Shown one piece after another: positions 44,523 through 61,403 of a DNA stretch of 64,000 bases (positions are counted from its first letter, which is position 1; the number at the start of each line of letters is the position of its first letter). Under the pieces are notes generated by a model. The model was not told the origin of the DNA, made no database searches, and saw only the letters and a program-made list of their open reading frames with translations. Made by a program: the position numbers and the translations under genes. The DNA comes from an uncultured Candidatus Saccharibacteria bacterium. Lineage in GTDB: Bacteria; Patescibacteriota; Minisyncoccia; Minisyncoccales; UBA5738. The stretch is from the NCBI GenBank assembly GCA_964470995.1, contig CAYYEP010000004.1:2846-66845 (forward strand). Reading direction: 5' to 3'.

Positions 44523-45593
44523 ATGGACGATAACAAAAAAATCAGGGTGACGTGCGCAATGTCGGGCGGCGTGGACAGTGCGGTCAGCGCGGCTTTGCTT
44601 AAAAAAGCCGGTTTTGGGGTAACCGGGGTGTTTATGAAGTTCTGGACTGAACCGGCCGCTACCGGGGTGTATTTGCCCGAAAACCGATGCTGTTCGGGCG
44701 AAGCTGAATTGCGGGCGCGCAAAACCGCATTCCAACTGCGGATTCCGTTTTATGTTTTGGATGTAAAAGACGAGTTTAAGAAAATGGTCGTTGACCGGTT
44801 TGTCGCGGATGCCAAAACCGGCCTGACCGCCAATCCCTGCGTTGTTTGCAACCAAGAAATCAAATTCGGGTTGTTAATTGACAAAGCCCTGCAAATGGGC
44901 GCGGATTATGTGGCCACCGGCCATTATGTCCGAATGAAAAAGGCCCGGAACGGGATTTATCATTTGTTGAAAGGAAAGGACAAAGAAAAAGACCAGTCGT
45001 ATTTTTTGTGGCGGTTAAACCAGGATCAGTTGGCGCGGGTGATATTCCCGGTGGGTTGTTTTGAAAAAAACGAAGTGCGAAAATTGGCCAAGAAATGGAA
45101 ATTGCCTTCCGCGGCCACGCCCGAATCGCAGGAAGTTTGTTTTGCACCGGCTGGCATGGATGTTTTTCTGGAAAAACATTGCGGCAAAAAACCGGGAAAT
45201 ATCATTGATGCGGAGGGGTGTATCATTGGACGGCATAATGGATTATGGTTCTATACCATAGGACAGCGCAAAGGGATTAAATTGTCCGGCGGGCCGTTCT
45301 ATGTTAGGGCCAGAGATATTGCAAAAAACGAGTTGATAGTTGCGCGAAGCGCAAAAGAGCTGGGGCGCGGACAGGCAATTTTGTCGGATATAAATTGGGT
45401 TGCGGGAATGATGCCGGATTTACCGCTGACAGCCCAAGTAAGAATCCGTTACCGGGCAAAGGAGGTTTTTTCGGTTTTGGGTAAAGACAGTTTATTAAGA
45501 TTTGATAAGCCGCAATTTGCGGTTACGCCGGGCCAGTCGGCGGTGTTTTATAAGAGGGGCGAAGTCATCGGGGGCGGTGTTATCCGGGGTTAA
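44523..45593 (+). CDS. mnmA: tRNA 2-thiouridine(34) synthase
   Basis: The PP-loop is CAMSGGVDSAV. The protein is colinear with MnmA (DQSYFLW, GQRKG). Confidence 0.85.
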   Translation: MDDNKKIRVTCAMSGGVDSAVSAALLKKAGFGVTGVFMKFWTEPAATGVYLPENRCCSGEAELRARKTAFQLRIPFYVLDVKDEFKKMVVDRFVADAKTGLTANPCVVCNQEIKFGLLIDKALQMGADYVATGHYVRMKKARNGIYHLLKGKDKEKDQSYFLWRLNQDQLARVIFPVGCFEKNEVRKLAKKWKLPSAATPESQEVCFAPAGMDVFLEKHCGKKPGNIIDAEGCIIGRHNGLWFYTIGQRKGIKLSGGPFYVRARDIAKNELIVARSAKELGRGQAILSDINWVAGMMPDLPLTAQVRIRYRAKEVFSVLGKDSLLRFDKPQFAVTPGQSAVFYKRGEVIGGGVIRG

Positions 45594-45687
45594 TAAAAAA
45601 GAGATTAAATTTGATAAAAAACGGTGATAATGTGTTTTTTTTGTGGGGGGCGGGAGAAATTGCTTGGTTTGAGGCAGGGGTTGATTT

Positions 45688-47367
45688 ATGTTATTGTTAA
45701 TGAATCTAGATAATCCAGAATCCATGAAGAAATCAGCTTCAAAAAGGAAAAGCGAAAAAAAGATCAACAAAGAAAGCAGGAACGCAAGATTTGCGCAAGA
45801 TACGGTGGCCAAGCCGCTGGTTAAGATCGCATCCGGTATTAGGCCGCGGATAGTCAATGCGGCGGCGTTGGAAGCCAAGTTTATTCCGGCGCCCAAGATC
45901 GTGCCCAAACCGGTAGTAAAGAAAGGAGTGTCCGAAATTCAGAAACCCAAAGCCGAGGAAGCCGAGTCGGAATTTGAATTAAAGAAGACTAGAATCAGGA
46001 TTATCGGAATCGGCGGAGGCGGCGGGAATATTGTTTCGGAAATCGCCGAAAAAGTAAAAAAATCTTCTTTTTGCATTGCCAATACCGATTTTGCGGCTTT
46101 GCGCAACGCTCCCAAGAATGTAACGGTTTTTCAATTCGGTGAAAATGTGACCCATGGTTTGGGTACCGGTATGGATGCGCGGATTGCCGAGGAGGCCGCG
46201 ACTGCCGAGAGAGAAGCGATCAAAAAGCTGGTGGAGGATCAGGATTTAGTAATTATTGTGGCGTCGCTGGGCGGCGGCGCGGGTTCGGGTGCGGCGCCGG
46301 TGTTTGCGCAAATATCGAAAAGCTTGGGGAATCTGACGTACGGTATTTTTACAATGCCTTTTGTTTTTGAAGGATCAAAAAAAAGCGATATTGCCAAGGC
46401 CGCGTTGGAGCGGTTGAAGCCATATTTGAATGCGCTTACGGTTTTACCGAATGAGCGCGTGTTTGAGGTGGTTCCCAAAACGACGCCATTTTCCAAAACT
46501 TTGTCTTATGTTAATTCGATGTTATCGGACAGCTTGGAGGGGTTAATTGAGACAATTTATGATACTGGACTGATAAATATTGATTTTGCCGATTTGCGAA
46601 CGATCTTGGCTGGCAACGGCAAGATAGCTTTTTTAAATACCGTGTCTTTCAAAAAGGGGGAAGAAACAGATTTAGAAGCGTTTGAAAAAGTTTTCGGGTC
46701 GCCGCTTTATCCATATACAATCGATAAAGCGCGGGGTATGTTATTGAATATCGTGGCGCAAAAGGATTTAAAACTTCTCGAGGTAAATAAAATACTGACT
46801 AGTGTTGCCGGGCGCATACACAAAGACGCGAGGATAATTTTTGGCATAGGACATGAAGGTGCTAAAGACGGTTCCGTGCGGGTGACGGTATTGGCAACGG
46901 GTTGTATATACGGGGATATCCAGGATAATGGCGCGGCCAAAGAGGTGATGCCGGTTCCAGTTCCCAATCCCAGGCCAAACAAAATTTTGGAGCCGCCAAA
47001 ACCGATAAACGCGGCAAAAAAATCAAAACCGGCGGGAAAGACAAAAAAAATCGTGGCCAAGGCGCTAAAGGTGCGGGTGGATAAAAAAAAGATCGAGGTA
47101 AAAAAAGAGATTCCGGCGAAAAAAGAGGTTCCCGCCAAGATTGAAAAAATAGTGCCTGCAGTTAAACCGAAGGTGGGGGCGCCGGTCGAGTTTTTTGGTG
47201 AGGCGGAGCCGGGTGCTTATCAGGATCAGCAAAGTATTGTTGAACAGTTTGCGCCGGTGAGGCGAAATGCGCTTCAGGTTAAGAAAGAGATCGAGATGGA
47301 AGAAAAGCAGATGATGGAGAAAGAGAAAGAGTGGGATGTTCCCGCTTTTCTCCGCAAGAAGAAATAA
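45688..47367 (+). CDS. ftsZ: Cell division GTPase FtsZ with N-terminal extension and long basic linker
   Basis: Motifs IGIGGGGGN, GLGTGMD and SLGGGAGSGAAPV. The linker is K-rich and the C-terminal peptide is WDVPAFLRKK. Confidence 0.85.
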   Translation: MLLLMNLDNPESMKKSASKRKSEKKINKESRNARFAQDTVAKPLVKIASGIRPRIVNAAALEAKFIPAPKIVPKPVVKKGVSEIQKPKAEEAESEFELKKTRIRIIGIGGGGGNIVSEIAEKVKKSSFCIANTDFAALRNAPKNVTVFQFGENVTHGLGTGMDARIAEEAATAEREAIKKLVEDQDLVIIVASLGGGAGSGAAPVFAQISKSLGNLTYGIFTMPFVFEGSKKSDIAKAALERLKPYLNALTVLPNERVFEVVPKTTPFSKTLSYVNSMLSDSLEGLIETIYDTGLINIDFADLRTILAGNGKIAFLNTVSFKKGEETDLEAFEKVFGSPLYPYTIDKARGMLLNIVAQKDLKLLEVNKILTSVAGRIHKDARIIFGIGHEGAKDGSVRVTVLATGCIYGDIQDNGAAKEVMPVPVPNPRPNKILEPPKPINAAKKSKPAGKTKKIVAKALKVRVDKKKIEVKKEIPAKKEVPAKIEKIVPAVKPKVGAPVEFFGEAEPGAYQDQQSIVEQFAPVRRNALQVKKEIEMEEKQMMEKEKEWDVPAFLRKKK

Positions 47368-47531
47368 AATTTTGTTGTTCGGCCATATAAAAAATGCAGA
47401 TTGGCCGAACCCTTCAGTTTCGGTTTTGTTTTGTATCTACGGCAACCACGGAAATTTCAGCAAAGCATTTTTGAGATGCTTTTCGGGATTCGTGGTTGTG
47501 GGAAGTGAGCAGTACTACTAAACAAAAAAAT

Positions 47532-48416
47532 ATGGCGACGGTAACCATATCCAAGGAGATATTGGATAAAATATACGTTAAGCGTCCGGAAGACAGCAAA
47601 AAATACGATTTTGGCTACGTTTTGATTATCGGGGGTTCGGAATATTATTCGGGTGCGCCGGCAATGGCGGCAATGGCGGCGTTTAACGCGGGAGCGGATA
47701 TGGTGCGTATCGTGGCGCCGCGGCGCGCCAGCGATATTATTGCTTCGTTTTCGCCAGTGATGGCAACGACTTCTCTGGATGGCCCAAGGCTGTGTTTGGA
47801 TAACGTAAGCGTGTTACTGGAAGCGATGGAATCGATAAAATTGTTTTCGGAGGGAAAATGCGCCGCAGTAATTGGCGGCGGCATCGGGCGGTCGCCGGAG
47901 ACAATGGAGGCAGTGCGCGAATTCATTAAAGGAATTGATGGAATACCGGTGGTGGTTGACGCGGATGCCATCCGATCGCTGGCGGATAAAATTGAATTAG
48001 CCAGAGGTAAGAATTTGGTTTTTACGCCGCATGCGCGAGAATTTAATACGATGACAGGAAATAAATGCGATGGATTATCCGATGAGCAATTGGCCGAAAT
48101 TGTGCGAAACCAGGCGGCAAATTTGGGCGCGGGGATTATTTTGAAGGGTAAGACCGATTTTATTTCTAATGGTGTTGACGTGGCTTACAATATTACCGGA
48201 AATGCGTTAATGACCAAGGGCGGGACGGGTGATACGCTGGCGGGATTATTGGGCGCGATGTTGGCGCGCGGCGTTAATATGTTTGATGCCGCGTGCGCGG
48301 CGGCGTATATTAACGGTGCGGCGGGCGATTTGGCGGGAGTGCGGCGCGGCGAAGCGGTGACGGCAATGGACTTGATCGATGAGATTCCCAATGTTTTGCC
48401 TAAATATCAATATTAA
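47532..48416 (+). CDS. ADP-dependent NAD(P)H-hydrate dehydratase (YjeF C-terminal type)
   Basis: Motifs YSGAPAMAA and KGGTGDTLAGLLGA. ATG at 47532 is preferred over the upstream alternative start. Confidence 0.8.
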   Translation: MATVTISKEILDKIYVKRPEDSKKYDFGYVLIIGGSEYYSGAPAMAAMAAFNAGADMVRIVAPRRASDIIASFSPVMATTSLDGPRLCLDNVSVLLEAMESIKLFSEGKCAAVIGGGIGRSPETMEAVREFIKGIDGIPVVVDADAIRSLADKIELARGKNLVFTPHAREFNTMTGNKCDGLSDEQLAEIVRNQAANLGAGIILKGKTDFISNGVDVAYNITGNALMTKGGTGDTLAGLLGAMLARGVNMFDAACAAAYINGAAGDLAGVRRGEAVTAMDLIDEIPNVLPKYQY

Positions 48417-48540
48417 ACAACAAAATGCCAAATTTCAAATTACAAACAAATATAAATTAGGATAAAAAATGTAAATGGGAACATTTTACATTTGATTATC
48501 GGTAATCGTTTGTGATTTATGAGTTGGGATTCAGCAATTT

Positions 48541-49464
48541 ATGCATGACCTTATTATAATTGGTGGCGGACCGGCTGGGATGAGCGCGGCGATTTACGCG
48601 GCGCGCCAGAAACTTGATTTTATGTTGCTAACCAAGGAATTTGGCGGCCAAATGGCGAAAAAGGAGGTGGCGATTGAAAATTATCCCGGCTTAGGCAGTA
48701 TTTCGGCGTTGGATTTGATCGCTAAGTTTCGGGATCATCTTAAATTATTGAATGTTGAAGTTGTTTTTGGCGAGGCGGTGAGGTTGGCAAAGATGGCGGG
48801 CGGATTTTCGATTAAGACCGAAAAAGAATTTTTTGAGAGCCGGGCGGTGATTTTGGCAACCGGAGCGTCGCCGAGAATGTTGAATATTCCCGGAGAAAAG
48901 GAATTTATCGGTCGGGGAGTCGGTTATTGCGCCACTTGCGACGGTCCGTTATTTGCACGGAGGCGCACGGCGGTAATCGGGGGGGGAAATTCGGCGTTTG
49001 AGGCGGCAATTTTTTTGGCAAAATTCGCGGCAGAGGTTTTTTTGATCGAACGCGGGCCGAAGATTTTTGCCGATCATACCAACCAGGAGTTGGCACAGGC
49101 GACCGGAAAGGTAAAAATCATTACCAATGCGAAGATCGCGCGGATTGAGGGAGCAAATTTTGTGAGCGGGCTGGTTTACACCGATGCGGAAAATAACGAA
49201 GCGAAATTGCCGGTAGAAGGGATATTTATCAAGGCCGGGTCGGAACCGGCATCGGTGTTTGCGGGAGAATTGGCCGAATTAAACGAGCGGGGCGAGATAA
49301 AATTCGATTATGCGACTCAGACGACCAAGACTCCGGGATTATTTGCGGCGGGCGATGTGTCGGCTATTAAATTCAAGCAAATCGTGGTTGCGGCGGGCGA
49401 AGGCGCCAAGGCGGCGATGGCGGCAAATGACTATTTGATCAATCTCGGCCAAAAAAATAATTAA
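48541..49464 (+). CDS. trxB: Thioredoxin-disulfide reductase
   Basis: Motifs IIIGGGPAGMSAA, the redox-active CATCDG, and GGGNSAFEAA. Confidence 0.9.
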   Translation: MHDLIIIGGGPAGMSAAIYAARQKLDFMLLTKEFGGQMAKKEVAIENYPGLGSISALDLIAKFRDHLKLLNVEVVFGEAVRLAKMAGGFSIKTEKEFFESRAVILATGASPRMLNIPGEKEFIGRGVGYCATCDGPLFARRRTAVIGGGNSAFEAAIFLAKFAAEVFLIERGPKIFADHTNQELAQATGKVKIITNAKIARIEGANFVSGLVYTDAENNEAKLPVEGIFIKAGSEPASVFAGELAELNERGEIKFDYATQTTKTPGLFAAGDVSAIKFKQIVVAAGEGAKAAMAANDYLINLGQKNN

Positions 49465-49498
49465 CAAACCGGCGTATAAAAAATCGGCGGTCATCCAA

Positions 49499-50734
49499 AT
49501 GTTTTCGGGGTCAAAGACAAAAATCAAATCCGTGCGCGCGCGCGAGATTCTTGATTCGCGCGGGAATCCAACCGTTGAGACAGAGATTGTTACCGGCGGC
49601 GGGAGGTTTGTTTCGGCAGTAGCTTCGGGGGCGTCGACGGGCGCGCATGAGGCTTGTGAGTTGCGCGACGGCGATCCAAAACGTTACGGCGGCAAAGGTG
49701 TTTTGAGGGCGGCTGGCAACGTTAATAATATGATCGCGCCAAAAATTGTCGGATTGGACGCGCGTGAACAGCAAAAGATCGATGCGTTGATGATCGGTTT
49801 GGACGGTACCGAAAATAAATCCAAATTAGGCGCTAACGCGATCTGCAGCGTTTCAATGGCGGCAGCCAAGGCCGGGGCGGGAGAGAGAGATGTTTGGCGG
49901 CACATAGCTGAACTGGCACAAAACGAAAAACCGGCATTATCTAACCCGTGTTTTAACATCATTAATGGCGGCGCGCACGCGGGCAACCAGCTGGATGTGC
50001 AGGAATTTATGATTGTGCCGCAGGGGCAGAAATTTTCCGCCAATTTACGCGTGGCGGTGGAAGTTTACCATTGCCTGAAGGAAATCCTGGAAAGGGCGTA
50101 CGGCAAGTCGGCGACCAATTTGGGAGATGAGGGCGGATTCGCGCCAGACCTAAAAACTCCCGAGGAGGCATTGGCGCTGATAATGCAGGCGGCGGAGGCG
50201 GCGCAAGCCAAAGAGAACATCAAGATAATCATGGATGTGGCTTCGACACAATTTTTTGAGGGCGGCAAATATAAAATGCATATCGGGGAATTTGCGGCGG
50301 CACAGTTGGGGGAATTATATAAAAAGCTGGCCAACGACTTCCCTATTATCGGTTTTGAGGATCCGTTTGGCGAGGATGACTGGGCGGCCTGGGCGGCGTT
50401 TAAACCGATGAACGCGATAGTTATCGGTGATGATTTGTTGGTAACCAATCCAAAACGCATTAAGGAAGCCAACGAGAAAAATGCCTGTAATGCCATGATC
50501 CTGAAGCTTAACCAGATCGGGACAGTTTCCGAAGGGCTTGAGGCGGCCAGATTGGCCGACCTTAACGGCTGGAAAGTCATTGTATCGCATCGTTCCGGGG
50601 AAACTAACGATGATTTTATCGCTGATTTTGCCGTGGGTATTGGTGCGGATTTCATCAAATCCGGGGCGCCGGCGCGCGGTGAACGCTTAGCTAAATACAA
50701 TCGCTTAAGCAAGATCGAGGAAGAATTGCATTGA
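49499..50734 (+). CDS. eno: Enolase
   Basis: Motifs REILDSRGNPTVE, ILKLNQIGT and SHRSGETND. Confidence 0.95.
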   Translation: MFSGSKTKIKSVRAREILDSRGNPTVETEIVTGGGRFVSAVASGASTGAHEACELRDGDPKRYGGKGVLRAAGNVNNMIAPKIVGLDAREQQKIDALMIGLDGTENKSKLGANAICSVSMAAAKAGAGERDVWRHIAELAQNEKPALSNPCFNIINGGAHAGNQLDVQEFMIVPQGQKFSANLRVAVEVYHCLKEILERAYGKSATNLGDEGGFAPDLKTPEEALALIMQAAEAAQAKENIKIIMDVASTQFFEGGKYKMHIGEFAAAQLGELYKKLANDFPIIGFEDPFGEDDWAAWAAFKPMNAIVIGDDLLVTNPKRIKEANEKNACNAMILKLNQIGTVSEGLEAARLADLNGWKVIVSHRSGETNDDFIADFAVGIGADFIKSGAPARGERLAKYNRLSKIEEELH

Positions 50735-50758
50735 TTTATGAATCGCGATTTATGATTT

Positions 50759-51520
50759 ATGAATGAATCAAAAAAATTCAAAATTGTTTTATTGCGTCAT
50801 GGGGAGAGTGCTTGGAACCGCGAGAACCGGTTTACCGGGTGGACGGATGTGGAGCTGTCGGATTTGGGCGTAAGCGAAGCTAAAGATGCCGGGCAAATCC
50901 TTAAAAAAGAGGGCTGGGTTTTTGATTTGGTTTTTACTTCGGTATTGAAACGGGCGGTTTTGACTACGGATATTGTTTTGGAACAGATGGATCGGGCCGA
51001 TATTAAAATAAAATGCGCATGGCAGTTGAATGAGAGGCATTACGGCGCTTTGCAAGGATTGGATAAAGCGGAAATGGCAAAAAAATACGGCGAAGAACAG
51101 GTGTTGTCCTGGCGTCGGAGCTATGCGGTGCGGCCGCCCGAATTGAGCGACGCGCAGTATGTTGAGCAAAACCGGCAAACGATATTTAAAACCGTGCCGG
51201 CAGATAAAATGCCGCGGACCGAATCGCTGGCCGATACTTATGAACGCGCGGTGGGTTATTGGAATTCCGATATTGCGCCAGCGATCAGGGACGGCAAAAA
51301 GATACTGATCTCGGCGCACGGCAACAGCTTGCGCGCGATTATTAAGTTTTTGGATGGAATTTCGGACGAAAAAATTTCGGAATTGAATATACCGACGGGG
51401 GTGCCTCTGGTTTACGAGCTGGATGAGAGGCTAGAGCCAATAAATCATTATTATTTGGGCGACCAAAGCGAGATCGAAGTTAAGATCGATAAGGTAAAAA
51501 ATCAGGCAAAGCCGATATGA
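50759..51520 (+). CDS. gpmA: 2,3-bisphosphoglycerate-dependent phosphoglycerate mutase
   Basis: Motifs LLRHGESAWNRENRFTGW, ERHYG and SAHGNSLR. Confidence 0.9.
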   Translation: MNESKKFKIVLLRHGESAWNRENRFTGWTDVELSDLGVSEAKDAGQILKKEGWVFDLVFTSVLKRAVLTTDIVLEQMDRADIKIKCAWQLNERHYGALQGLDKAEMAKKYGEEQVLSWRRSYAVRPPELSDAQYVEQNRQTIFKTVPADKMPRTESLADTYERAVGYWNSDIAPAIRDGKKILISAHGNSLRAIIKFLDGISDEKISELNIPTGVPLVYELDERLEPINHYYLGDQSEIEVKIDKVKNQAKPI

Positions 51521-51626
51521 ACGATTTTTTTAGGCATTATTTTTGTGATTATTGCGGTGTGTTTTTTTGTTTATAATTATGAATATATATGCATTTGTTT
51601 TTGGCTGATTGAGAATTAGTTTTGGA

Positions 51627-51654
51627 TTGACAGGCGGATTGTATGTTCTATAAT
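51627..51654 (+). promoter_or_regulatory. Consensus sigma-70-type promoter
   Basis: TTGACA (51627-51632), a 16-nt spacer, then TATAAT (51649-51654), about 280 nt upstream of the ferredoxin ATG. Confidence 0.5.
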
Positions 51655-51934
51655 TAAAACAATTTTAAAAATCCATGTTCGTGGCGAAAAACCGTATTTG
51701 TGCTTCGCAATGGCGGTCAGAATCGGTTTTGAAGAAATGGATGTGTGTTTTGTTAAATTGGATAAAGCGGGCGTTGATATCGAGGCGTTTGGGCAAGGGT
51801 GGGAACAGATTGAAATGAGCGGTAAATAGTTGTTTATCAGTTGGAGTTGGACGCGGGTTTGAATCGGGTTGAGGTTTTGGAGAATTAAGTAAAATCATTA
51901 CTTAAAAGAAATTAAATTAATTAAATAAAAAAAT

Positions 51935-52117
51935 ATGGCTAAATACCAGGTCAACAAAGATAAATGCTTGGGATGTTTTATTTGCACTGTTAATTGTCCC
52001 AGCGGTATGCAGCAGGATGGCGACGGCAAGGCTAAGGTGGCGGATTCCGACGCGGTGGAGGCGTGCGGCGGTGAGAGCGTGTGCCCGCACGGCGTGATCG
52101 AAAAAACCGAAGAATAG
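51935..52117 (+). CDS. Small 4Fe-4S ferredoxin
   Basis: 60 aa. CLGCFICTVNCP plus a distal CP. Confidence 0.8.
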   Translation: MAKYQVNKDKCLGCFICTVNCPSGMQQDGDGKAKVADSDAVEACGGESVCPHGVIEKTEE

Positions 52118-52126
52118 TTTTTGGAG

Positions 52127-52150
52127 AAAACGCCCGTCCGGGCGTTTTTG
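52127..52150 (+). terminator. Rho-independent terminator
   Basis: Stem acgcccg/cgggcgt, loop tc, then tttt. Confidence 0.7.
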
Positions 52151-52407
52151 AGTTTGACTTAGTCCGTAATTTAAAATATTCTAAATTATCAGATGCACAG
52201 AGGCGTGCAATGATTGATTTTCTTGAATTACGAATCCTTAAACTTAAATGCCATTGGAGCGGCCTAATTGTCCGCGTTTCTCTCGGGTTATTTTGGGATT
52301 AACCTAGGATAAGGGCGAAGGATAGGCTTCCAAAAAACAAAGCGTTTCGCAATTCAAAGCAATCAATAACGATGATGTTACCCGTGAGCGGGTTTTTTAG
52401 TTTGCGT

Positions 52408-52435
52408 TTGACAACCATTGCGGGTTAGCTATAAT
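52408..52435 (+). promoter_or_regulatory. Consensus sigma-70-type promoter
   Basis: TTGACA (52408-52413), a 16-nt spacer, then TATAAT (52430-52435), upstream of the GltB-like gene. Confidence 0.5.
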
Positions 52436-52497
52436 TCTATTGTTTTGGGTCCTAATTATGAATATATAGTCATTATAATAATTAAAAATTAATAATT

Positions 52498-53688
52498 ATG
52501 GTTAATTGGACGAAAAAAGTGCAGGATCGAATTGTCAAGGTGCCGGTGCGGGGCGGGCGGTCGGTAAAAGAAATTAAAAACAGTCTGGAGGATTTGGTAT
52601 TTTTGCCGGCGCAAATTGCTAAGCGCCCGGTAGACTATTTCCGGGAGCCGATATCGGCAAAAACTGTTTTGGGTAAGAATTCAAAAAAACCGGTTGAAAT
52701 CGAAACGCCAATACTGATTGCGGCGATGTCGTTTGGGGCATTGTCAAAGAACGCCAAGGTGGCGCTGGCAAAAGGTTCGGCATTGGCCGGTACGGTGGCG
52801 AATACCGGCGAAGGCGGAATGCTGGCGGAGGAACGGCAATATGCCAAAAGGCTGGCAATTCAGTATAGTACGGGGAGATTTGGCATTGATGAAGAAATTT
52901 TAAAGAAGGCCGATATTGTCGAGATAAAGATCGGCCAGGGGGCTAAGGGCGGCCAAGGCGGATTATTACAGAAAGAAAAAGTGACGTCCGAAATCGCGGC
53001 GGTGCGCCGGGTCAAGCTTGGAGTCGATGTGCACTCGCCTGCTTACCATCCGGATATCAAATCAGCCAGGGATTTGAAGTCTAAAGTTGATTGGTTGCGA
53101 AAATTAACCGGAGGCGTACCGATTATTATTAAGCTGGCGGCGGGCGATGTGGCAAATGACGTTAAGCTGGCGATCGCGGCCGATCCGGATATAATTGCCA
53201 TTGACGGTGGTTGGGGCGGTACGGGCGCGGCGCCCGAAGTGATGCTGGACGAAATGGGAATACCTGTTTTACCGGCATTGATTGCGGCGCGACGGGTTTT
53301 GAATGAGGCCGGCGCAAAACAGGAATTGCTGATCGCGGGCGGTTTTTATACCGGTGGCGACGTGGCTAAAGCGTTGGCGCTTGGAGCGGACGCGGTTTTT
53401 ATGGGTTCGGCGATGCTTGGGGCTTTGGGATGCGTGGGCTGTAATTTATGCTATTTGGGGAAATGCCCGAAGGGCGTGGCGACACAGGACCCGGAGTTGG
53501 CTAAAAATATGGATGTGGAGGCGGCCGCCAATAATGTGGCCAACTACATTAAACATTGTACCGAGGAGGTGAAAATGGTGGCGGGAGCAACGGGAAATGA
53601 TAATATTCATAGTTTGGGCAGCGATGATCTTCGCGCGGTAACGCTGGAAATGGCCAAGACAGCCAGAGTGAAATTTGCCGGGGAATAG
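52498..53688 (+). CDS. FMN-binding glutamate-synthase-related protein (GltB domain 2 family)
   Basis: 396 aa. Motifs MSFGALS, IEIKIGQGAKGGQGG and IAIDGGWGGTGAAP, plus a C-terminal Cys cluster CVGCNLCYLGKCP. Confidence 0.8.
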   Translation: MVNWTKKVQDRIVKVPVRGGRSVKEIKNSLEDLVFLPAQIAKRPVDYFREPISAKTVLGKNSKKPVEIETPILIAAMSFGALSKNAKVALAKGSALAGTVANTGEGGMLAEERQYAKRLAIQYSTGRFGIDEEILKKADIVEIKIGQGAKGGQGGLLQKEKVTSEIAAVRRVKLGVDVHSPAYHPDIKSARDLKSKVDWLRKLTGGVPIIIKLAAGDVANDVKLAIAADPDIIAIDGGWGGTGAAPEVMLDEMGIPVLPALIAARRVLNEAGAKQELLIAGGFYTGGDVAKALALGADAVFMGSAMLGALGCVGCNLCYLGKCPKGVATQDPELAKNMDVEAAANNVANYIKHCTEEVKMVAGATGNDNIHSLGSDDLRAVTLEMAKTARVKFAGE

Positions 53689-54678: not shown

Positions 54679-55056
54679 ATGATTGCTCAATTCGCGATAT
54701 GGTATTTTGGGGAGGTACCCAAAAAGATTAAAAAGATATGGGTTAATTATCTTTGGTTTTTTGCACAGTATTTTGAAATCGGCCAGCTTTGCCGAGAATT
54801 TTTAGCACCTTGGAAAGGACTGACATTCCATCGCCAGAAGCGCGGGTTTGAATTGAGCGACGCCTTTTCGGCGTGGTTTGGTAATTTTTTTGTAACACGG
54901 CCGATCGGGGCGGTTATGAGATTGTTTTTCATATTGATCGGGGCGGTAGTGGAAATTATGGTGCTGACAGCGGGTATTTTAGCTTTTCTGGGGTGGATAG
55001 TTTATATTCCGGCGATATTTTATCTATTGGCCGCGGGGTTATCTTTTTTAGGGTGA
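54679..55056 (+). CDS. Small membrane protein
   Basis: 125 aa. The N-terminal W/F-rich segment ends in LAPWKG, followed by 2 TM helices. The ORF ends 12 nt before the Clp-like gene. Confidence 0.5.
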   Translation: MIAQFAIWYFGEVPKKIKKIWVNYLWFFAQYFEIGQLCREFLAPWKGLTFHRQKRGFELSDAFSAWFGNFFVTRPIGAVMRLFFILIGAVVEIMVLTAGILAFLGWIVYIPAIFYLLAAGLSFLG

Positions 55057-55068
55057 TTTTATTAAGCA

Positions 55069-58000
55069 ATGCCTTACGATCCAAAAAAAAGTTTGATATT
55101 CCGTGGGGTTGATTATGTGCGGTTTATCCCGGCGGGGGCAATAGGTTTGGTTAAAAAAATAAACCAGGCGGTTTTGGCGGCAGTTTTTGTTTTTTGGGGA
55201 GCATTGGCGGCAATATTAAATTTTATGCCGGGATTGGGGGTGAGTTTGGGGCTTGACGCGCGCGCGGCGGCCGAATTGGGAGATTTTTTTTGGGGAGCAG
55301 GATTGGTATCGTTGGCGATGGTTATGGGGGCAAATCTGGTGCTTGGTTTTACGCGCCAGCGGTTAATGAGTTTTGGCAGGATAATCGAAGACGGGGTTTT
55401 ATTAGATGATAATTATCTTGAATATTTGGATTTTGAGGCGGCGCGCGTGTTTAAAATAACAATGGAGCGGGCCGGTGCGCCTTTTGCAACCGGCCTTTTG
55501 GAAAACATCATTAAGGGTCGCAAACTGGATTTTTCGATGCGCCGGCTTTGTATTGACGGGGCGTTTTTTGAAAAGATGGCGCGGGATTCGCTTAAAGAAC
55601 AGATGAAAGATGATTCGCCGCAAGCAAAAGCGGGTTTAAGCAACGATAACGCCAATAAAATTGAAGCGGTTCTAATCAGTGCGATTGACTTGGCGCGCCG
55701 CAACCAAGAGAAGAAGATCTCGATTTTTATACTTTTTTTGAGTTTAATGGAGATTGAACCCGCGTTTAAGGCGATATTGGATAAATATGAATTGTTGGAA
55801 GAGGATGTGGAATCGACGGTTGTGTGGCAAATGCGCATGGAAGCGTACCGCCGATGGCGCCAGCGGTATTGGGAGCGGGATAATTTGCGTTTGGCGCTGG
55901 CGTTTAAGCCGGTAGCGAGCTTGATCGGGGGCTATACGGTAACGTTGGATCAATATAGCCGCAATTTATCGGCGCATAATCCGTTGCGCCAGGGAGGGGT
56001 GGTATTGCATCAAAAGGAAATCGAAGAGCTGGAAGGAATGCTTTGCAAAGAGAATGGCAACGGGATATTGCTGGTGGGTGAAATGGGTTGCGGTCGTAAA
56101 AGCATTGTTCACAATTTTGCCAATCGGGTTGCCAGAGAGAACAGTTCGGGCGATTTGAAGATGTTGCGGATATTAGAATTGGATATGGTGGCGCTGATCG
56201 GTGCTTATAGCAATCGGGCTCATTTGGCGGCGGTGCTTGAAACAATATTTATGGAAGCGGTTAAGGCTAAGAATGTGGTGCTGGTGATCCCCCAGATAAA
56301 TAACTATTTTGGCGGTAAATACGGAACCGAAAAAATGGTGGCCGCGGATATCAGCGGCGTAATCAGCCAGTTTCTGAAAATAAAGGGGTTTCGTTTGATT
56401 GGCATTACCACCTACGAAGGATTGCACGGGTCGATTGAGCCCGCGGCCGATGCGGCGGCGCTTTTTACAAAGATTGAGGTAGCACCAGCGGGATCGGCCG
56501 ATGCGATACGCGTTTTAAAAGAGCTAAGCTTGCGGCTGGAAAAGAAAAATAGGTTGTTTATTCCGATAACCACTTTAAAAGAGATAGTTAAACTTTGTGA
56601 TTACTTTTTGGGTGACCGGGCGTTTCCGTTAAAGGCGGTTAATCTTTTGGATGAGGTGATTGCCAACAAAATGAGCCATCCGGGCATTTTACGGGCGATT
56701 ATGCCTGGAGATATAGATATGTTTTTCTCGCGTAAATATGAGGTGCCGGCCGGGATAGCGGGTGTTAAAGAAAAGGAAATTTTGCTTAATCTTGAAGATC
56801 ACATTCATGAAGGATTGATCAACCAAAAAGAAGCTGTGGAGGAATTGGCTAACGCATTGCGACGGGCGCGGGCTGAGATCAAGAAGCGCAAACGAACAAT
56901 TGGTAATTTTCTGTTCTTGGGGCCGACGGGAAGCGGTAAAACCGAGACGGCTAAACAGCTGGCGCGGGTTTATTTTGGGTCGGAGAAAAATATGATCAAG
57001 CTTAATATGGCCGAATATCAGACGGCGGAATCAATCAATAAGCTGTTGGGAAGCGCGGGGACGGCGGGGTTGCTGACTACGGCGGTGCGGGAAAATCCGT
57101 TTTCGCTTATTTTAGTTGATGAAATTGAAAAGGCTGATAAGGGGGTACTTGATCTTTTTTTGAACATTTTTGACGAAGGCGAACTGGCCGACGGTATGGG
57201 TAAGATTGTCGATTTTCGGCATACGATAATCATTGCGACATCGAATGCGGGTGCCGAGTACATCAAGGAAGCGGTGGAGCGCGGCAGTACGATGCGGAAT
57301 CTTAAGGATACAATGCTGGATAACCTGATGCGGCGCAATGTTTTTAAGCCGGAATTTTTGAATCGTTTCGATGCGATTGTGCTTTACAGGCCGTTGAACC
57401 GCGAAGAAATGAAACAGGTGGCCGGATTAATGGTCAAGGATATTAAGGACAGATTGCGCGATAAGCGGATCGAGCTGGTGGTGACCGATGAATTGTTGGC
57501 GGGTCTTGGCAAGATCGGATTTGATCCGGTATTCGGCGGCCGGGCAATGCGCCGCGCGGTACAGGATAAGATTGAAAACGCAGTGGCGCGGGCGTTGTTG
57601 CTGGAGAGGATAAAATCGGGAGATATTTGCGAGTTTGATCCAAAAAGCTGGGAATTGCTGGTAGGGGAGGAACGACGCAAACATTATGACAATAATGTTA
57701 ATGTCGTTGAAGGAGATGATCCGATTGCAAAGATATTGTTGCGGCTGGAGGACCGTATCCATGAGGGGTTGATCGACCAAGAAGAAGCGGTTAAGGAATT
57801 GGCTAATGCATTGCGACGGGCGCATGCTAATTTGAAAGAGCGAAAACGTACAATTGGCTGTTTCCTTTTTTTGGGGCCGACGGGGTGCGGAAAAACCGAG
57901 ACGGCTAAACAGCTGGCGCGGGTGTATTACGGTTCGGAGAGTAATATGGTTCGTTTGGATATGGCCGAATACCAGACACCCGATTCAATCGAGAAGTTGA

Positions 58001-58647
58001 TTGGCAACATTCAGACACCGGGATTGCTGACGACCCGGATAATAGAGAATCCGGATTCTTTAATCCTGATTGATGAGATTGAGAAATCAATTCCACAGGT
58101 ATTGAATATTTTTTTAAGCGTGTTCGATGACGGCCAATTATCCGACGGTATGGGACAGGCAGTAGATTTTACGAATACGATTATTGTTGCCACTTCTAAT
58201 GCGGGTGCCGAGTACATTAAGGAGGCGGTTCAAAAGGGAATATATCTGGACGGCAAGTTTAAGCGGAATTTTTTAGATTATCTTCTTGGGCGGGGAGTAT
58301 TTACGCCGGAATTTTTGAATCGTTTCGATGCCGTATCGCTTTACCGGCCGTTGAATGCCAAGCAAATGAGACAGGTGGCCAGTTTGATGTTGGGCGATAT
58401 CAAAAAAGGGTTGGCGCTCAAGGGTATCCGGCTTGAGACGGGAAACGAATTGTTGGATAAATTGGTACAAATCGGATTTGATCCGGTATTCGGCGGCCGG
58501 GAAATGCGGCGGACGGTGCAGGATAATGTTGAAAACGCGATTGCCACCGCTTTATTGTCGCGTTCGATCCGCGGGGGGGATGTTGTGGAAATCGACCCTT
58601 ATACGTGGCAGGCGGTAGTGGTAGGCAAGACCGCTGAAGGAAAATAA
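55069..58647 (+). CDS. Membrane-anchored Clp/Hsp100-like AAA+ protein with degenerate D1 and two tandem D2 modules
   Basis: 1192 aa. N-terminal TM helices are followed by Clp_N-like repeats. D1 has GEMGCGRKS in place of GxxGxGKT and VLVIPQINN in place of hhhhDE. D2a (from aa 571) has GPTGSGKT, LILVDEIEKA, ATSNAG and FGGRAMRR. D2b (from aa 889) has GPTGCGKT, LILIDEIEKS, ATSNAG and FGGREMRR. Confidence 0.8.
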   Translation: MPYDPKKSLIFRGVDYVRFIPAGAIGLVKKINQAVLAAVFVFWGALAAILNFMPGLGVSLGLDARAAAELGDFFWGAGLVSLAMVMGANLVLGFTRQRLMSFGRIIEDGVLLDDNYLEYLDFEAARVFKITMERAGAPFATGLLENIIKGRKLDFSMRRLCIDGAFFEKMARDSLKEQMKDDSPQAKAGLSNDNANKIEAVLISAIDLARRNQEKKISIFILFLSLMEIEPAFKAILDKYELLEEDVESTVVWQMRMEAYRRWRQRYWERDNLRLALAFKPVASLIGGYTVTLDQYSRNLSAHNPLRQGGVVLHQKEIEELEGMLCKENGNGILLVGEMGCGRKSIVHNFANRVARENSSGDLKMLRILELDMVALIGAYSNRAHLAAVLETIFMEAVKAKNVVLVIPQINNYFGGKYGTEKMVAADISGVISQFLKIKGFRLIGITTYEGLHGSIEPAADAAALFTKIEVAPAGSADAIRVLKELSLRLEKKNRLFIPITTLKEIVKLCDYFLGDRAFPLKAVNLLDEVIANKMSHPGILRAIMPGDIDMFFSRKYEVPAGIAGVKEKEILLNLEDHIHEGLINQKEAVEELANALRRARAEIKKRKRTIGNFLFLGPTGSGKTETAKQLARVYFGSEKNMIKLNMAEYQTAESINKLLGSAGTAGLLTTAVRENPFSLILVDEIEKADKGVLDLFLNIFDEGELADGMGKIVDFRHTIIIATSNAGAEYIKEAVERGSTMRNLKDTMLDNLMRRNVFKPEFLNRFDAIVLYRPLNREEMKQVAGLMVKDIKDRLRDKRIELVVTDELLAGLGKIGFDPVFGGRAMRRAVQDKIENAVARALLLERIKSGDICEFDPKSWELLVGEERRKHYDNNVNVVEGDDPIAKILLRLEDRIHEGLIDQEEAVKELANALRRAHANLKERKRTIGCFLFLGPTGCGKTETAKQLARVYYGSESNMVRLDMAEYQTPDSIEKLIGNIQTPGLLTTRIIENPDSLILIDEIEKSIPQVLNIFLSVFDDGQLSDGMGQAVDFTNTIIVATSNAGAEYIKEAVQKGIYLDGKFKRNFLDYLLGRGVFTPEFLNRFDAVSLYRPLNAKQMRQVASLMLGDIKKGLALKGIRLETGNELLDKLVQIGFDPVFGGREMRRTVQDNVENAIATALLSRSIRGGDVVEIDPYTWQAVVVGKTAEGK

Positions 58648-58721: not shown

Positions 58722-60359
58722 ATGGGAAATTTACCAAACAAAATTAAAACTACGCAATTCATCTTCCTGGCAATTACGGCGGTTTTAGGTTTGGCGGCGG
58801 TTTTCGGCCGCGCGGCGGCAGAGTCATGTTCCGCTGATGATCCTTGCGGTTTTGGGAAAATTTGCTTTAACGGCAAATGCGCAGACAGCGGCAGTGTTGA
58901 TTGTACTAACCACAGCCAAATGGAATGTTATGATAATGATGTGTATTGGTACGATTCGTGCGGTACGCGCGAGGAAAAGTCCAAAGACTGCGGAGAGGAT
59001 TCTTATCTGACGGAATATCAGTGCAGTTCAACTATGGCACAACAGGGAGTGATTGCGCGAGGTTGCGATAAGGGTGAATGCCAGGAAGTGAGGGGCTGGA
59101 TTGATCTTCAAAATTGCGATGACACGGGGTTGGTTTGCCGTGACGGCGCCTGCCGGGCCGGAGATGCAACACCGCCGTTATTGTATTCTCTTTTGCCTTC
59201 GGGAGAAGTGAATTCTTCCCGGGTGGTGTTGTCGCTGGCCACTGATGAGAAGGCGGAGTGCCGGTATAGTTATTATGACGTAGGTTATGACCAAATGGGG
59301 ATGAAATTCGCCACAGGCGACGGCATACGTCATTCGGTGGCGACAAATTTGGCCGCCCCGGGAAATTATATTTTTTATGTGCGTTGCCGGAACGGGGCGG
59401 GAAACGTTAATCTGGTATCAAATAAAATATCATTTTCCTATGTTTTGGATTTAAAAAAAACAAATTCCGCGGAAATGACGGCTGTAGGCCAGGATTTAAC
59501 ACCGCCCGCAATATCGGCGTCAAGCCTAAAACCGTCCGGAAAAGTTTATACCGCAGTCGTGGAACTTTCATTGGTGACCGGCGAGAAGGCAAATTGCCGT
59601 TACGATACCCGGGATTTAATTTACGCGTCGATGACGAGCAATTTTAATCGCGACACGGGCGGGACCGTCCATTATAAAGCAGTAACCTTGCCTGGATCGG
59701 GGAGTTACGCGTATTATGCAAGGTGCCGGGACACCGCCGGAAATGAAAGTAATTCGTCGGCGGTTATTGAGTTTGAATATGCCGGAGATTCAACTAGCGG
59801 TTTATTAATTTCGGATACAAAGCCAGCTGGCGCTATTTATCAAAAGACGGTGGCATTGGAAGCGGTTACAGACAGCACGGCGATATGCCGTTATTCGGCA
59901 ACTGAAACTGATTTTGAATCGATGGTTGATGAATTTTCTTCAATTAACGGCGTGCAGCATCTGGCAGTGGTTACTTTGGATGATTTTGGCGATTATAATT
60001 TCAGTGTTGCGTGTGTCGGCGATGGCGCGCGGGATAAAAACGGAACGGCGCATATAGTTTTCCAGTATAAGGATTCGAATGGGATGGGAGCCGCGGTGCC
60101 GGAACCGGTCAAATGCGATAATGCGGTTTTGGGTAAAAGCGACGGGATTTGCGAAGCCATTGCCGATTGCGTATGCGATCCTGATTGCGGCGGCCAGGAT
60201 TCTGATTGCGCCAAAATTCAAGATAATAAGAAGATCGGCGTTCCGGTTTTGGGTTTGGCGGCGGCGGTTATTGCGGGGTTGGCGGGCGTTTATATGGTGA
60301 GAAAAAGGGCCGGAGGAAGATCGGAAGATTCCGGCGAGGACGATTCTTTGGGATTGTAA
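58722..60359 (+). CDS. Cys-rich surface protein with three ~95-aa repeat modules and C-terminal TM anchor
   Basis: 545 aa. It has a signal peptide and a Cys-rich N-terminal region. The repeats carry the paired motifs AECRYS...YVRCRNGAGN, ANCRYD...YARCRDTAGN and AICRYS...SVACVGDGAR. The C-terminus is VLGLAAAVIAGLAGVYMVRKR. Confidence 0.65.
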   Translation: MGNLPNKIKTTQFIFLAITAVLGLAAVFGRAAAESCSADDPCGFGKICFNGKCADSGSVDCTNHSQMECYDNDVYWYDSCGTREEKSKDCGEDSYLTEYQCSSTMAQQGVIARGCDKGECQEVRGWIDLQNCDDTGLVCRDGACRAGDATPPLLYSLLPSGEVNSSRVVLSLATDEKAECRYSYYDVGYDQMGMKFATGDGIRHSVATNLAAPGNYIFYVRCRNGAGNVNLVSNKISFSYVLDLKKTNSAEMTAVGQDLTPPAISASSLKPSGKVYTAVVELSLVTGEKANCRYDTRDLIYASMTSNFNRDTGGTVHYKAVTLPGSGSYAYYARCRDTAGNESNSSAVIEFEYAGDSTSGLLISDTKPAGAIYQKTVALEAVTDSTAICRYSATETDFESMVDEFSSINGVQHLAVVTLDDFGDYNFSVACVGDGARDKNGTAHIVFQYKDSNGMGAAVPEPVKCDNAVLGKSDGICEAIADCVCDPDCGGQDSDCAKIQDNKKIGVPVLGLAAAVIAGLAGVYMVRKRAGGRSEDSGEDDSLGL

Positions 60360-60431: not shown

Positions 60432-61403
60432 ATGGATATCATCGATGAATTAAAGAAGGCGAATTTAAAAGGAAGAGGCGGCGCGGGGTTTCCTGCGTGG
60501 CAAAAGTGGCAGATGGTAAAAGATGCGCCGGGCGAAACCAAATATGTTGTTTGCAATGTGTCCGAAGGCGAGCCGGCGGTGGCCAAGGACGGCCACATTC
60601 TGGAAAAATGGCCCGATATTGTGGTTGAGGGGATTGAATTGGCGATGAATGAAGCGGGAGCAAAAAAGGGTTATTTATATTTGCGCCGGGATTATTTTGA
60701 TAAGTTTAAAAATGCGCTGGCCGAAATTATCGGCGCACGGGCGATAAAAATCATCCGCGAACCGGGCGGGTATCTGGGCGGCGAAGAAACCGCGCTGTTG
60801 GATTCCATTGAAGGAAAAGCCGTGGAGCCGCGGATCAAGCCGCCGTTTCCGCCTCAAGCGGGTCTTTGGGGCTGTCCCACTTTGATCAATAATTTGGAGA
60901 CCTTGTATTTTGCGGCAAGGATTGTCTGCGGCGAATATAAAAATACGCGCTTTTACACCATTGCCGGCGATTGCGCTTGCCCGGGAGTGTTTGAGCGGAG
61001 CGAAAGCTTGACAATCAAGGAAATTTTGGAAAAGACCGGCAATCTGCCGCAATTCAAATTTTTTGTGCAGGCCGGGGGCGGTGCCAGCGGCACCATTATG
61101 TTATCGGATGAATTGGAGGTTCCTTTGTCCGGCGCGGGATCAATCGTGATCTATGACAAAGCCAAAACCGATCCGCGGCAGTTGGGGTTGAAATGGATAA
61201 ATTTTTTCATCAACGAGAATTGCGGCAAGTGCGTTCCCTGCCGCGAAGGCGTTTATCGCCTGCGCGAGATTTTTTCAAAAGAGCCGCTTGACATTGCCCG
61301 GGCGCAAAGCATCGTCAAGCTGCTGGCGGTGGCCAGCTTCTGCCCCTTTGGCAAAGGCGTCGCGAATTCTTTTGGCAGTTTGTTGGAAAAAATAATCAAA
61401 TGA
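60432..61403 (+). CDS. NuoF/HydB-like flavoprotein subunit (FMN + 4Fe-4S), short form
   Basis: Motifs GRGGAGFPAWQKW, VCNVSEGEP, GEETALLDSIEG, PPFPPQAGLWGCPTLINNLET and NCGKCVPCREG. Confidence 0.8.
   Translation: MDIIDELKKANLKGRGGAGFPAWQKWQMVKDAPGETKYVVCNVSEGEPAVAKDGHILEKWPDIVVEGIELAMNEAGAKKGYLYLRRDYFDKFKNALAEIIGARAIKIIREPGGYLGGEETALLDSIEGKAVEPRIKPPFPPQAGLWGCPTLINNLETLYFAARIVCGEYKNTRFYTIAGDCACPGVFERSESLTIKEILEKTGNLPQFKFFVQAGGGASGTIMLSDELEVPLSGAGSIVIYDKAKTDPRQLGLKWINFFINENCGKCVPCREGVYRLREIFSKEPLDIARAQSIVKLLAVASFCPFGKGVANSFGSLLEKIIK

Follow-up and report, generated by a model that had tools for sequence, protein, structure and literature searches.

The window analysed here is a stretch of 64,000 nucleotides (nt) from contig CAYYEP010000004.1 (positions 2,846 to 66,845, forward strand; GenBank assembly GCA_964470995.1) of an uncultured Candidatus Saccharibacteria bacterium, placed by GTDB in UBA5738 of the Minisyncoccales. 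On its + strand it encodes a Clp/Hsp100-like ATPase with three AAA+ modules (55069..58647) and, immediately before it, a small integral membrane protein (54679..55056), referred to below as the partner; all positions are those of the window. The ATPase gene starts with ATG and runs uninterrupted through 1192 amino acids (aa). The partner gene, recognized by hidden Markov model (HMM) and sequence, encodes 125 aa, and its stop lies 12 nt before the ATPase start. An earlier note on this DNA, made from the letters of the sequence and a list of reading frames, had described the ATPase as one continuous open reading frame (ORF), and its start, end and length were found as given there, with no frameshift. 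The gene is a genuine membrane-anchored Clp/Hsp100 relative with one dead and two live ATPase modules, called D1, D2a and D2b in the following.

Domain structure of the ATPase

A Kyte-Doolittle scan places two hydrophobic segments at the N-terminus of the ATPase, and AlphaFold2 models them as a hairpin of transmembrane (TM) helices (aa 22-52 and 64-99; 55132..55365, + strand), which bears out the N-terminal TM helices expected earlier. Basic residues occur on either side of the hairpin, and the short loop joining its two helices is neutral to acidic; this charge pattern fits an N-in/C-in topology with the body of the ATPase in the cytoplasm. The hairpin is followed by a helical region resembling a divergent Clp N-domain (aa ~113-295; 55405..55953, + strand). 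In hhalign the profile of the family's N-region aligned with canonical Clp N-domains at a probability of 89% (E-value 2.4e-6, 113 columns), whereas Pfam Clp_N did not match the window ATPase. The two Clp_N-like repeats proposed earlier are confirmed in part only.

D1 (aa 306-535; 55984..56673, + strand), delimited by Pfam and by alignment to ClpC, consists of a large subdomain and a lid, the latter matching AAA_lid_9 at aa 477-534. A clear AAA-family match to the large subdomain was not found in Pfam; its P-loop region drew sub-threshold matches to generic P-loop models alone (AAA_16 at aa 316-362, ATPase_2 at aa 315-355). The Walker A motif reads GEMGCGRKS (aa 337-345; 56077-56103), with Lys changed to Arg and Thr to Lys, where ClpC has GEPGVGKTA. 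The Walker B stretch is VVLVIPQINNY (aa 403-413; 56275-56307), with Asp changed to Pro and Glu to Gln compared with VILFIDE in ClpC, and the Arg-finger stretch DAAALFTKIEV (aa 461-471) has AALF where ClpC and the canonical motif read ERRF. The pore loop of D1 is degenerate and its pore-tyrosine motif (KYRG) is gone. With Walker A, Walker B and Arg fingers all degenerate in the ClpC alignment, the earlier description of D1 as a dead pseudo-ATPase is upheld.

The combination of GEMGCGRKS, VVLVIPQ and AALF is common to all 28 close clusters. Among 58 distant family members, the Walker A Lys is replaced by Arg in 53 and the Arg fingers are replaced in every one, and the pore tyrosine is absent from D1; the change of the Walker B Asp to Pro is an additional step of the window clade beyond the wider family. 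A triplet of two basic residues and Ser or Thr is kept in the D1 P-loop superfamily-wide, as R-K-S here and as K-K-T, K-R-T or R-K-T elsewhere. Conservation of this triplet suggests a retained ligand-binding or structural role and not random decay.

D2a (aa 570-865; 56776..57663, + strand) and D2b (aa 888-1184; 57730..58620, + strand), both delimited by Pfam and alignments, are complete D2 modules separated by a fast-evolving linker of 22 aa (57664..57729, + strand), which in the AlphaFold2 model has a low predicted local distance difference test score (pLDDT) at aa 876-883. Pfam assigns AAA_2 twice (best stretch 610-770, total E-value 9e-83) and ClpB_D2-small twice, so that each module carries both; PF00004 AAA is reported in three stretches of the ATPase, the best one in D2b. 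In D2a the Walker A (GPTGSGKT, aa 618-625), Walker B (LILVDEIEKA, aa 680-689), sensor 1, Arg finger and sensor 2 are intact, and ATSNAG and FGGRAMRRA are present. The corresponding motifs of D2b are GPTGCGKT, LILIDEIEK, ATSNAG and GGREMRR, and the Arg-finger motif E-F-L-N-R-F-D is intact in both copies. All motifs quoted in the earlier note from D1, D2a and D2b occur at the places given there, among them the Walker A, Walker B, ATSNAG and FGGR/GGR motifs on which its two complete D2 modules had been based.

Pore-loop-1 is truncated in both D2 modules, reading LLGSAGTAGLLT in D2a (57043-57087) and LIGNIQTPGLLT in D2b. Compared with canonical ClpA, ClpB and ClpC it has lost six residues and the GYVG tyrosine motif, a point that the earlier note had missed. 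The resulting pattern, G-x3-[PA]G-[LYFV]-LT compared with the canonical GAPPGYVGYEEGGQLT, holds for family members throughout, and G[YFW][VIL]G was not found after the D2 Walker A in 115 of the 116 full-length representatives of the family clusters. The earlier note had called the protein an unfoldase; with the canonical aromatic pore loop absent from D1, D2a and D2b alike, that claim is not supported, and the short D2 loops lacking GYVG weaken any reading of the protein as a threading unfoldase.

A threading unfoldase or extractase like Msp1, FtsH and Bcs1 would possess a three-tier channel in which the residue at the loop tip (PG-L/Y/F) grips the substrate. Several features agree with such a machine: the N-terminal anchor sets the usual Hsp100 entry face, formed by N-domain and D1, at the membrane as in Msp1 and FtsH; the ATPase motifs are intact in D2a and D2b; several relatives have Tyr or Phe at the D2 loop tip; and the stretch after Walker B, which we take to be pore-loop-2, is conserved between D2a (ADGMGKIVDF) and D2b (SDGMGQAVDF). 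However, the aromatic-hydrophobic-Gly motif is missing from all representatives except one, the D2 loop has lost six residues, its tip in the wider family is mostly Leu after acidic residues (EEGLLT), and D1 is without a pore tyrosine too. We consider threading the main rival reading, though a somewhat unlikely one.

Among the curated NCBIfam models the best for the ATPase are ClpB, ClpA, ClpG/K and ClpV, with scores of about half the curated cutoffs or less. The ClpB models TIGR03346 and PRK10865 gave 617 bits (cutoff 1232) and 532 bits (cutoff 1417), the ClpA equivalog 527 (cutoff 993), ClpV/TssH 477 (cutoff 885), ClpG 491 (cutoff 1900) and ClpK 478 (cutoff 1900), so that none of the equivalog thresholds for ClpB, ClpA, ClpV/TssH, ClpG and ClpK was reached. 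This agrees with the earlier statement that the protein fits no described Clp class, and in place of a canonical two-ring ClpA or ClpC the profiles give three modules. In Foldseek the AlphaFold2 monomer model (mean pLDDT 86.5, predicted template modelling score (pTM) 0.64) had chains of ClpC and ClpB as its top matches in the PDB, with E-values from 1e-46 to 1e-36.

The alignment to S. aureus ClpC shows a connector between D1 and D2 of 27 aa in the ATPase versus 86 aa in ClpC, whose own M-domain is of the shorter kind, and the ATPase therefore has no M-domain. At the place of the ClpP-docking loop of S. aureus ClpC the ATPase shows an alignment gap, and the docking motif [ILV]G[FL] occurs neither within aa 728-760 nor in the part of D2b that corresponds to it. 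Both the missing M-domain coiled coil and the missing ClpP loop had been pointed out before, and the alignment agrees. Predicted promoters and terminators around the ATPase gene were not more numerous than in shuffled sequence.

Reality and history of the second D2 module

D2a and D2b share 65% identity in protein and 72% in DNA over 785 nt. The DNA value indicates an old, diverged duplication and not assembly collapse or duplication. Among 5.8 billion proteins searched, another nine clusters (1163-1224 aa) matched over the full length at 54-70% identity, and they originate from independent NCBI, JGI, ENA and Logan assemblies; clusters were defined at 90% identity, and together with that of the window protein they number ten. 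About 18 further clusters with 855-880 aa possess the same N-terminus and D1, followed by a single D2. Four GTDB species representatives besides the window (L008, L011, L013 and L014) also have the three-module architecture, and on the contigs of P0002, P0005, P0009 and P0012 three-module and two-module genes fill the same syntenic slot. The order of TM segments, degenerate D1 and two D2 modules first noticed in the window is thus conserved in ten clusters and four GTDB representatives.

Tandem repeats are a classic source of misassembly, and the third module could in principle be an assembly artefact or two adjacent genes read as one; positive evidence for this was not found here. The repeats differ too much in DNA, the ORF is continuous, the architecture recurs in ten clusters across NCBI, JGI, ENA and Logan as well as in the four species representatives, the same cluster is recovered from independent assemblies (L002/L003, L004/L005), and D2b forms a clade of its own. 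We regard the artefact as excluded for practical purposes.

Synonymous sites are saturated (pS, the proportion of synonymous differences, 0.6-0.75), and only nonsynonymous distances were compared between regions. Among orthologues these are equal for D2a and D2b (0.05-0.17), with 0.06-0.28 in D1 and 0.12-0.44 in the TM/N region; the D2 copies thus stand at or below D1 and below the TM/N region. The equal, low distances indicate that both copies are under purifying selection, and all five catalytic motifs of D2b are intact in all ten three-module clusters. Judged from sequence divergence, both D2 copies are functional and under equal purifying selection.

In a neighbour-joining tree of the D2 modules (Kimura distances, bootstrap), all ten D2b sequences are monophyletic at 93% support, and those of D2a are intermingled with the D2 of two-module proteins. 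Three-module and two-module proteins also interleave in a tree of N-region plus D1, where P0006 (three modules) pairs with P0025 (two modules) at 100% and P0018 falls with P0008-10 at 91%. In the two-module proteins P0013 and P0016 the one D2 is composite: its first ~60% is 91-98% identical to D2a of their three-module sister P0005 (loci L004/L005), and the rest is 71-84% identical to D2b of P0005 versus 47-67% to its D2a, with the breakpoint near the boundary of the large and small subdomains. Such a chimera of D2a and D2b shows a reversion from three to two modules by unequal recombination between the repeats. The trees are most simply explained by a single D2 duplication, which most likely took place in a Paceibacteria-type subclade, and by repeated losses thereafter, at least one lineage having reverted to two modules.

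The repeated loss, the nesting of two-module among three-module proteins and the lineage with a chimeric D2 might also be taken to mean that D2b is a redundant duplicate without function that is being lost, and its mean pairwise identity among orthologues is slightly lower than that of D2a (65% versus 71%). This explanation is unlikely. The catalytic motifs of D2b have stayed intact in every cluster, among lineages with an overall identity of only ~54% its nonsynonymous divergence equals that of D2a and does not exceed that of D1, and the D2b clade persists across the whole subclade.

The three-module form is rare. In an HMMER scan of 1.84 billion cluster representatives with N-region plus D1, only the cluster of the window protein had a length of ~1190 aa, the other top matches having at most 913 aa, and two D2 modules were found in the P0002 cluster only among the 116 full-length representatives. 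A third AAA+ module was, on the most likely history, added once and removed at least once by recombination in the window clade. The natural series of two-module, three-module and chimeric-D2 proteins lets one ask what an extra AAA+ ring contributes.

The Patescibacterial family, its membrane partner and its genomic setting

In a scan of one genome per GTDB species, relatives of the ATPase occur in at least 367 genomes. Of the 80 best loci, nearly all bear the labels of Patescibacteria-type metagenome-assembled genomes, with Paceibacteria, Nealsonbacteria, Minisyncoccales, Parcubacteria, Microgenomates and Beckwithbacteria among the labels. These were taken from record titles, and several look generic or wrong: among L008-L087 many read 'Saccharibacteria binchicken' and one reads 'Pacearchaeota archaeon', the close relatives being Paceibacteria-, Nealsonbacteria- or Parcubacteria-type genomes. 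The few names that the databases attach to these proteins are generic ('AAA family ATPase', 'ClpC', 'ClpA'), and an exact look-up of the window protein gave no record.

A typical family member has ~830-870 aa, two N-terminal hydrophobic segments, a D1 whose Walker A follows the pattern GxxGxGR(K/R)S, a short D2 pore loop and, in almost all cases, a single D2. The window protein shares the traits that define the family, namely N-terminal TM segments, a D1 without Arg fingers and pore tyrosine, a short D2 pore-loop-1, and the gene for the small membrane partner directly upstream, which elsewhere occurs as a fused domain. The novelty claimed for the architecture in the earlier note accordingly narrows: the third module is special to the clade, but the anchor, the dead D1 and the short loop are common to hundreds of genomes. 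A description of a membrane-anchored Hsp100, a three-module Hsp100 or a Patescibacterial family of this ATPase was not found in full-text searches of the literature. Being made up of standard Clp modules, the protein is not categorically new; its combination of traits and the natural series of forms should interest AAA+ specialists and Patescibacterial cell biologists.

The partner, which the earlier note had missed, consists of a conserved N-terminal region rich in Trp and Phe and two C-terminal TM helices. Conserved residues are W8, F27, P44-W45, N69, G77 and R81, and Glu92 is near-invariant within a TM segment. No Pfam or NCBIfam model matches the protein, and its AlphaFold2 model, computed from a shallow alignment, is all-helical at low confidence (pTM 0.31).

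In 76 of 84 loci, HMM searches found a homologue of the partner immediately upstream of the ATPase and on its strand; the gap between the two genes has a median of 1 nt, and many pairs overlap by 4-23 nt. Six loci without a partner match have at most 1.1 kb of sequence upstream of the match, four of them less than 300 nt. In L080 (Microgenomates) and L087 (Beckwithbacteria) the ATPase carries a fused partner domain at its N-terminus in place of its own hairpin, and in L052 this domain lies in the same open frame as the N-region of the ATPase. Such fusions are present in 35 of the 116 full-length representative clusters. Adjacent genes in some lineages and one fused gene in others provide strong evidence, drawn from gene arrangement, that partner and ATPase act as one unit. 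The N-terminus of P0030 had appeared by eye to be a further fused copy of the partner; this candidate was rejected, as BLASTP, hhalign (17-sequence profile) and hmmsearch were unsupportive.

Elsewhere in the family the gene pair is often followed at once by genes of the division and cell-wall (dcw) cluster, namely mraZ in 46, rsmH in 40, an ftsL-like gene in 38 and ftsI in 37 of 81 loci, and in about a dozen loci rplJ-rplL precede the pair. The loci concerned belong to L018-L087, with L072:8497-8943, L069:8995-9879 and L030:7554-9245 as examples. The adjacency may hint at a role in division or the envelope, or may be plain synteny. In the window clade the pair is located between a GltB-like gene and a gene for an immunoglobulin (Ig)-like secreted protein, followed by Nuo51-like and hydrogenase genes, and FtsZ is encoded ~8 kb upstream of the pair.

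Housekeeping surroundings also bear on the question of whether the ATPase belongs to an anti-phage defence system of the Dodola (DolB) or PDC-M37 type. Its D2 modules match the PADLOC models DolB (E-value 2.5e-56) and PDC-M37B (E-value 7.8e-56), but these matches do not extend beyond the generic D2 core, a PADLOC scan of three neighbouring proteins gave no match, and the synteny with housekeeping genes (FtsZ, enolase, rplJ-rplL, dcw) across a phylum-level group is unlike that of a mobile defence island. A function in defence is very improbable. Membership in Dodola (DolA/DolB) in particular was rejected on the D2-core match alone, the neighbours without PADLOC matches and the housekeeping context.

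Around the gene pair, a GltB-like flavin mononucleotide protein (52498-53688) and a Nuo51-like gene (60432-61403) were confirmed by Pfam. Over 44523-53688 and 60432-61403 the window has the same gene order as locus L001; by ORF size and order, the run comprises MnmA-like, FtsZ, carbohydrate kinase, thioredoxin-reductase-like, enolase, phosphoglycerate-mutase-like and small ferredoxin genes. On related contigs a [FeFe]-hydrogenase-like gene comes after the Nuo51-like gene. The ATPase gene is followed by a gene on the + strand (58722-60359) for an Ig-like, secreted-type protein of 545 aa, which has a signal- or anchor-like hydrophobic segment at the N-terminus, a Cys-rich N-terminal region, three internal repeats of ~100 aa with the pattern ...PSG.V....V.LSL.T.EKA.CRY... 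and a C-terminal TM anchor. Its Ig-like Pfam matches (Big_13, Y_Y_Y) are weak and sub-threshold. Counterparts behind orthologous ATPase genes have 555-1063 aa, some of them with PG_binding_1. An Rfam search over the 64-kb window gave no family at the gathering threshold and no call of a tRNA, rRNA or riboswitch.

Mode of action and comparison with known systems

The ATPase and its partner make up a two-gene membrane system found across Patescibacteria. We give about an even chance to a model with D1 as scaffold and D2 as motor, in which the absence of aromatic pore loops favours short-stroke remodelling of the Torsin type over processive threading. Torsins, which are related to Clp/Hsp100 and associated with membranes, likewise lack aromatic pore loops and need transmembrane cofactors (PMC5425593). 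The ATPase would form a hexamer on the cytoplasmic face of the membrane, with the side of the N-domain and D1 turned toward the bilayer. D1 would act as a non-hydrolysing assembly scaffold, comparable to NSF-D2 or p97-D1 in their own proteins, and the D2 ring, of which there would be two here, would supply all ATP-driven motion. N-domain, TM hairpin and partner would relay this motion to clients located within the membrane or close to it, with no hand-over of substrate to ClpP and no DnaK switching through an M-domain. The outcome would be short-stroke remodelling or disassembly of membrane or envelope complexes, in the wider family perhaps those of division or the cell wall. The extra D2 ring would be a second active tier providing more force or grip and no new function.

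Possible rather than probable is the more far-reaching proposal that the window protein is the first natural three-tier Hsp100-type machine, with one dead and two live rings, and the extreme form of an undescribed Patescibacteria-wide two-protein membrane ATPase that would act in the manner of Torsins, via its transmembrane partner, on envelope or division complexes.

Several observations weigh against the scaffold-and-motor model. The Arg finger of D2 is intact, unlike in Torsins, so that the partner would not be needed to complete the active site as Torsin cofactors are. The tip of the short D2 loop is still hydrophobic or aromatic, with Leu here and Tyr or Phe in several relatives, and this leaves room for some form of threading. 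Walker B Asp and Glu of D1 are often retained among the 58 distant members; together with the conserved R-K-S this means that D1 could still bind nucleotide or another phosphate ligand. The three stacked rings are inferred from the monomer model with its pTM of 0.64. Finally, the adjacency to dcw genes is absent in the window clade, where GltB-like, Ig-like and Nuo51-like genes are the neighbours instead.

In textbooks, Hsp100/Clp machines are soluble unfoldases with one or two rings that are driven by their pore loops. The present family departs from this picture by its membrane anchor, dead D1, truncated pore loops and obligatory, often fused partner. It points to an uncharacterised and apparently near-universal membrane machine of Patescibacteria, and since the genomes of these organisms are very small, the genes conserved among them are likely to be important. 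It may also help to explain the mechanical work of Torsins and other Clp-derived ATPases in which aromatic pore loops are missing. If the more far-reaching proposal of a three-tier machine is true, the system could be a lineage-defining part of the cell biology of these ultra-small organisms and the bacterial equivalent of the Torsin-cofactor principle.

With the class I Clp/Hsp100 proteins ClpB, ClpC and ClpA the ATPase shares the order of N-domain (divergent and only probable in the ATPase), D1 (AAA and AAA_lid_9) and D2 (AAA_2 and ClpB_D2-small); like ClpB it is without a ClpP loop, and like ClpA it is without an M-domain. It differs from them in being anchored in the membrane, in its degenerate D1, in the absence of the aromatic pore loop from all modules, in the second D2 and in the obligatory small membrane partner.

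In NSF (D2), p97/Cdc48 (D1) and Pex1/Pex6 (D1), too, one ring is degenerate or non-hydrolysing and probably keeps the hexamer assembled, and the second ring does the work. These proteins belong to the classic AAA clade, are soluble, have aromatic pore loops in the active ring and possess no third module. In FtsH, Msp1/ATAD1 and Bcs1 an N-terminal TM anchor puts the entry face of the ring against the membrane. Unlike the ATPase described here they are single-ring classic AAA proteins with functional aromatic pore loops and not of the Clp D2 type, and FtsH in addition carries a protease domain. A reference for Msp1 is PMC12793716. Dodola DolB and PDC-M37B have a ClpB-D2-like ATPase core in common with the ATPase, and nothing beyond this D2 core matches.

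Torsins with their cofactors LAP1 and LULL1 resemble the system in their kinship to the Clp/Hsp100 D2, an N-terminal hydrophobic segment, the absence of aromatic pore loops and the transmembrane partners. They have, however, a single AAA+ module and lack an Arg finger of their own, which is supplied by the cofactor, whereas the ATPase has an intact D2 Arg finger (NRFD), a dead D1 with an N-domain, and three modules. The partner differs from LAP1 and LULL1 in being a small helical membrane protein and not an AAA-like fold. By this comparison the ATPase is not a Torsin; beyond the shared Clp D2 ancestry, the likeness appears to be functional only.

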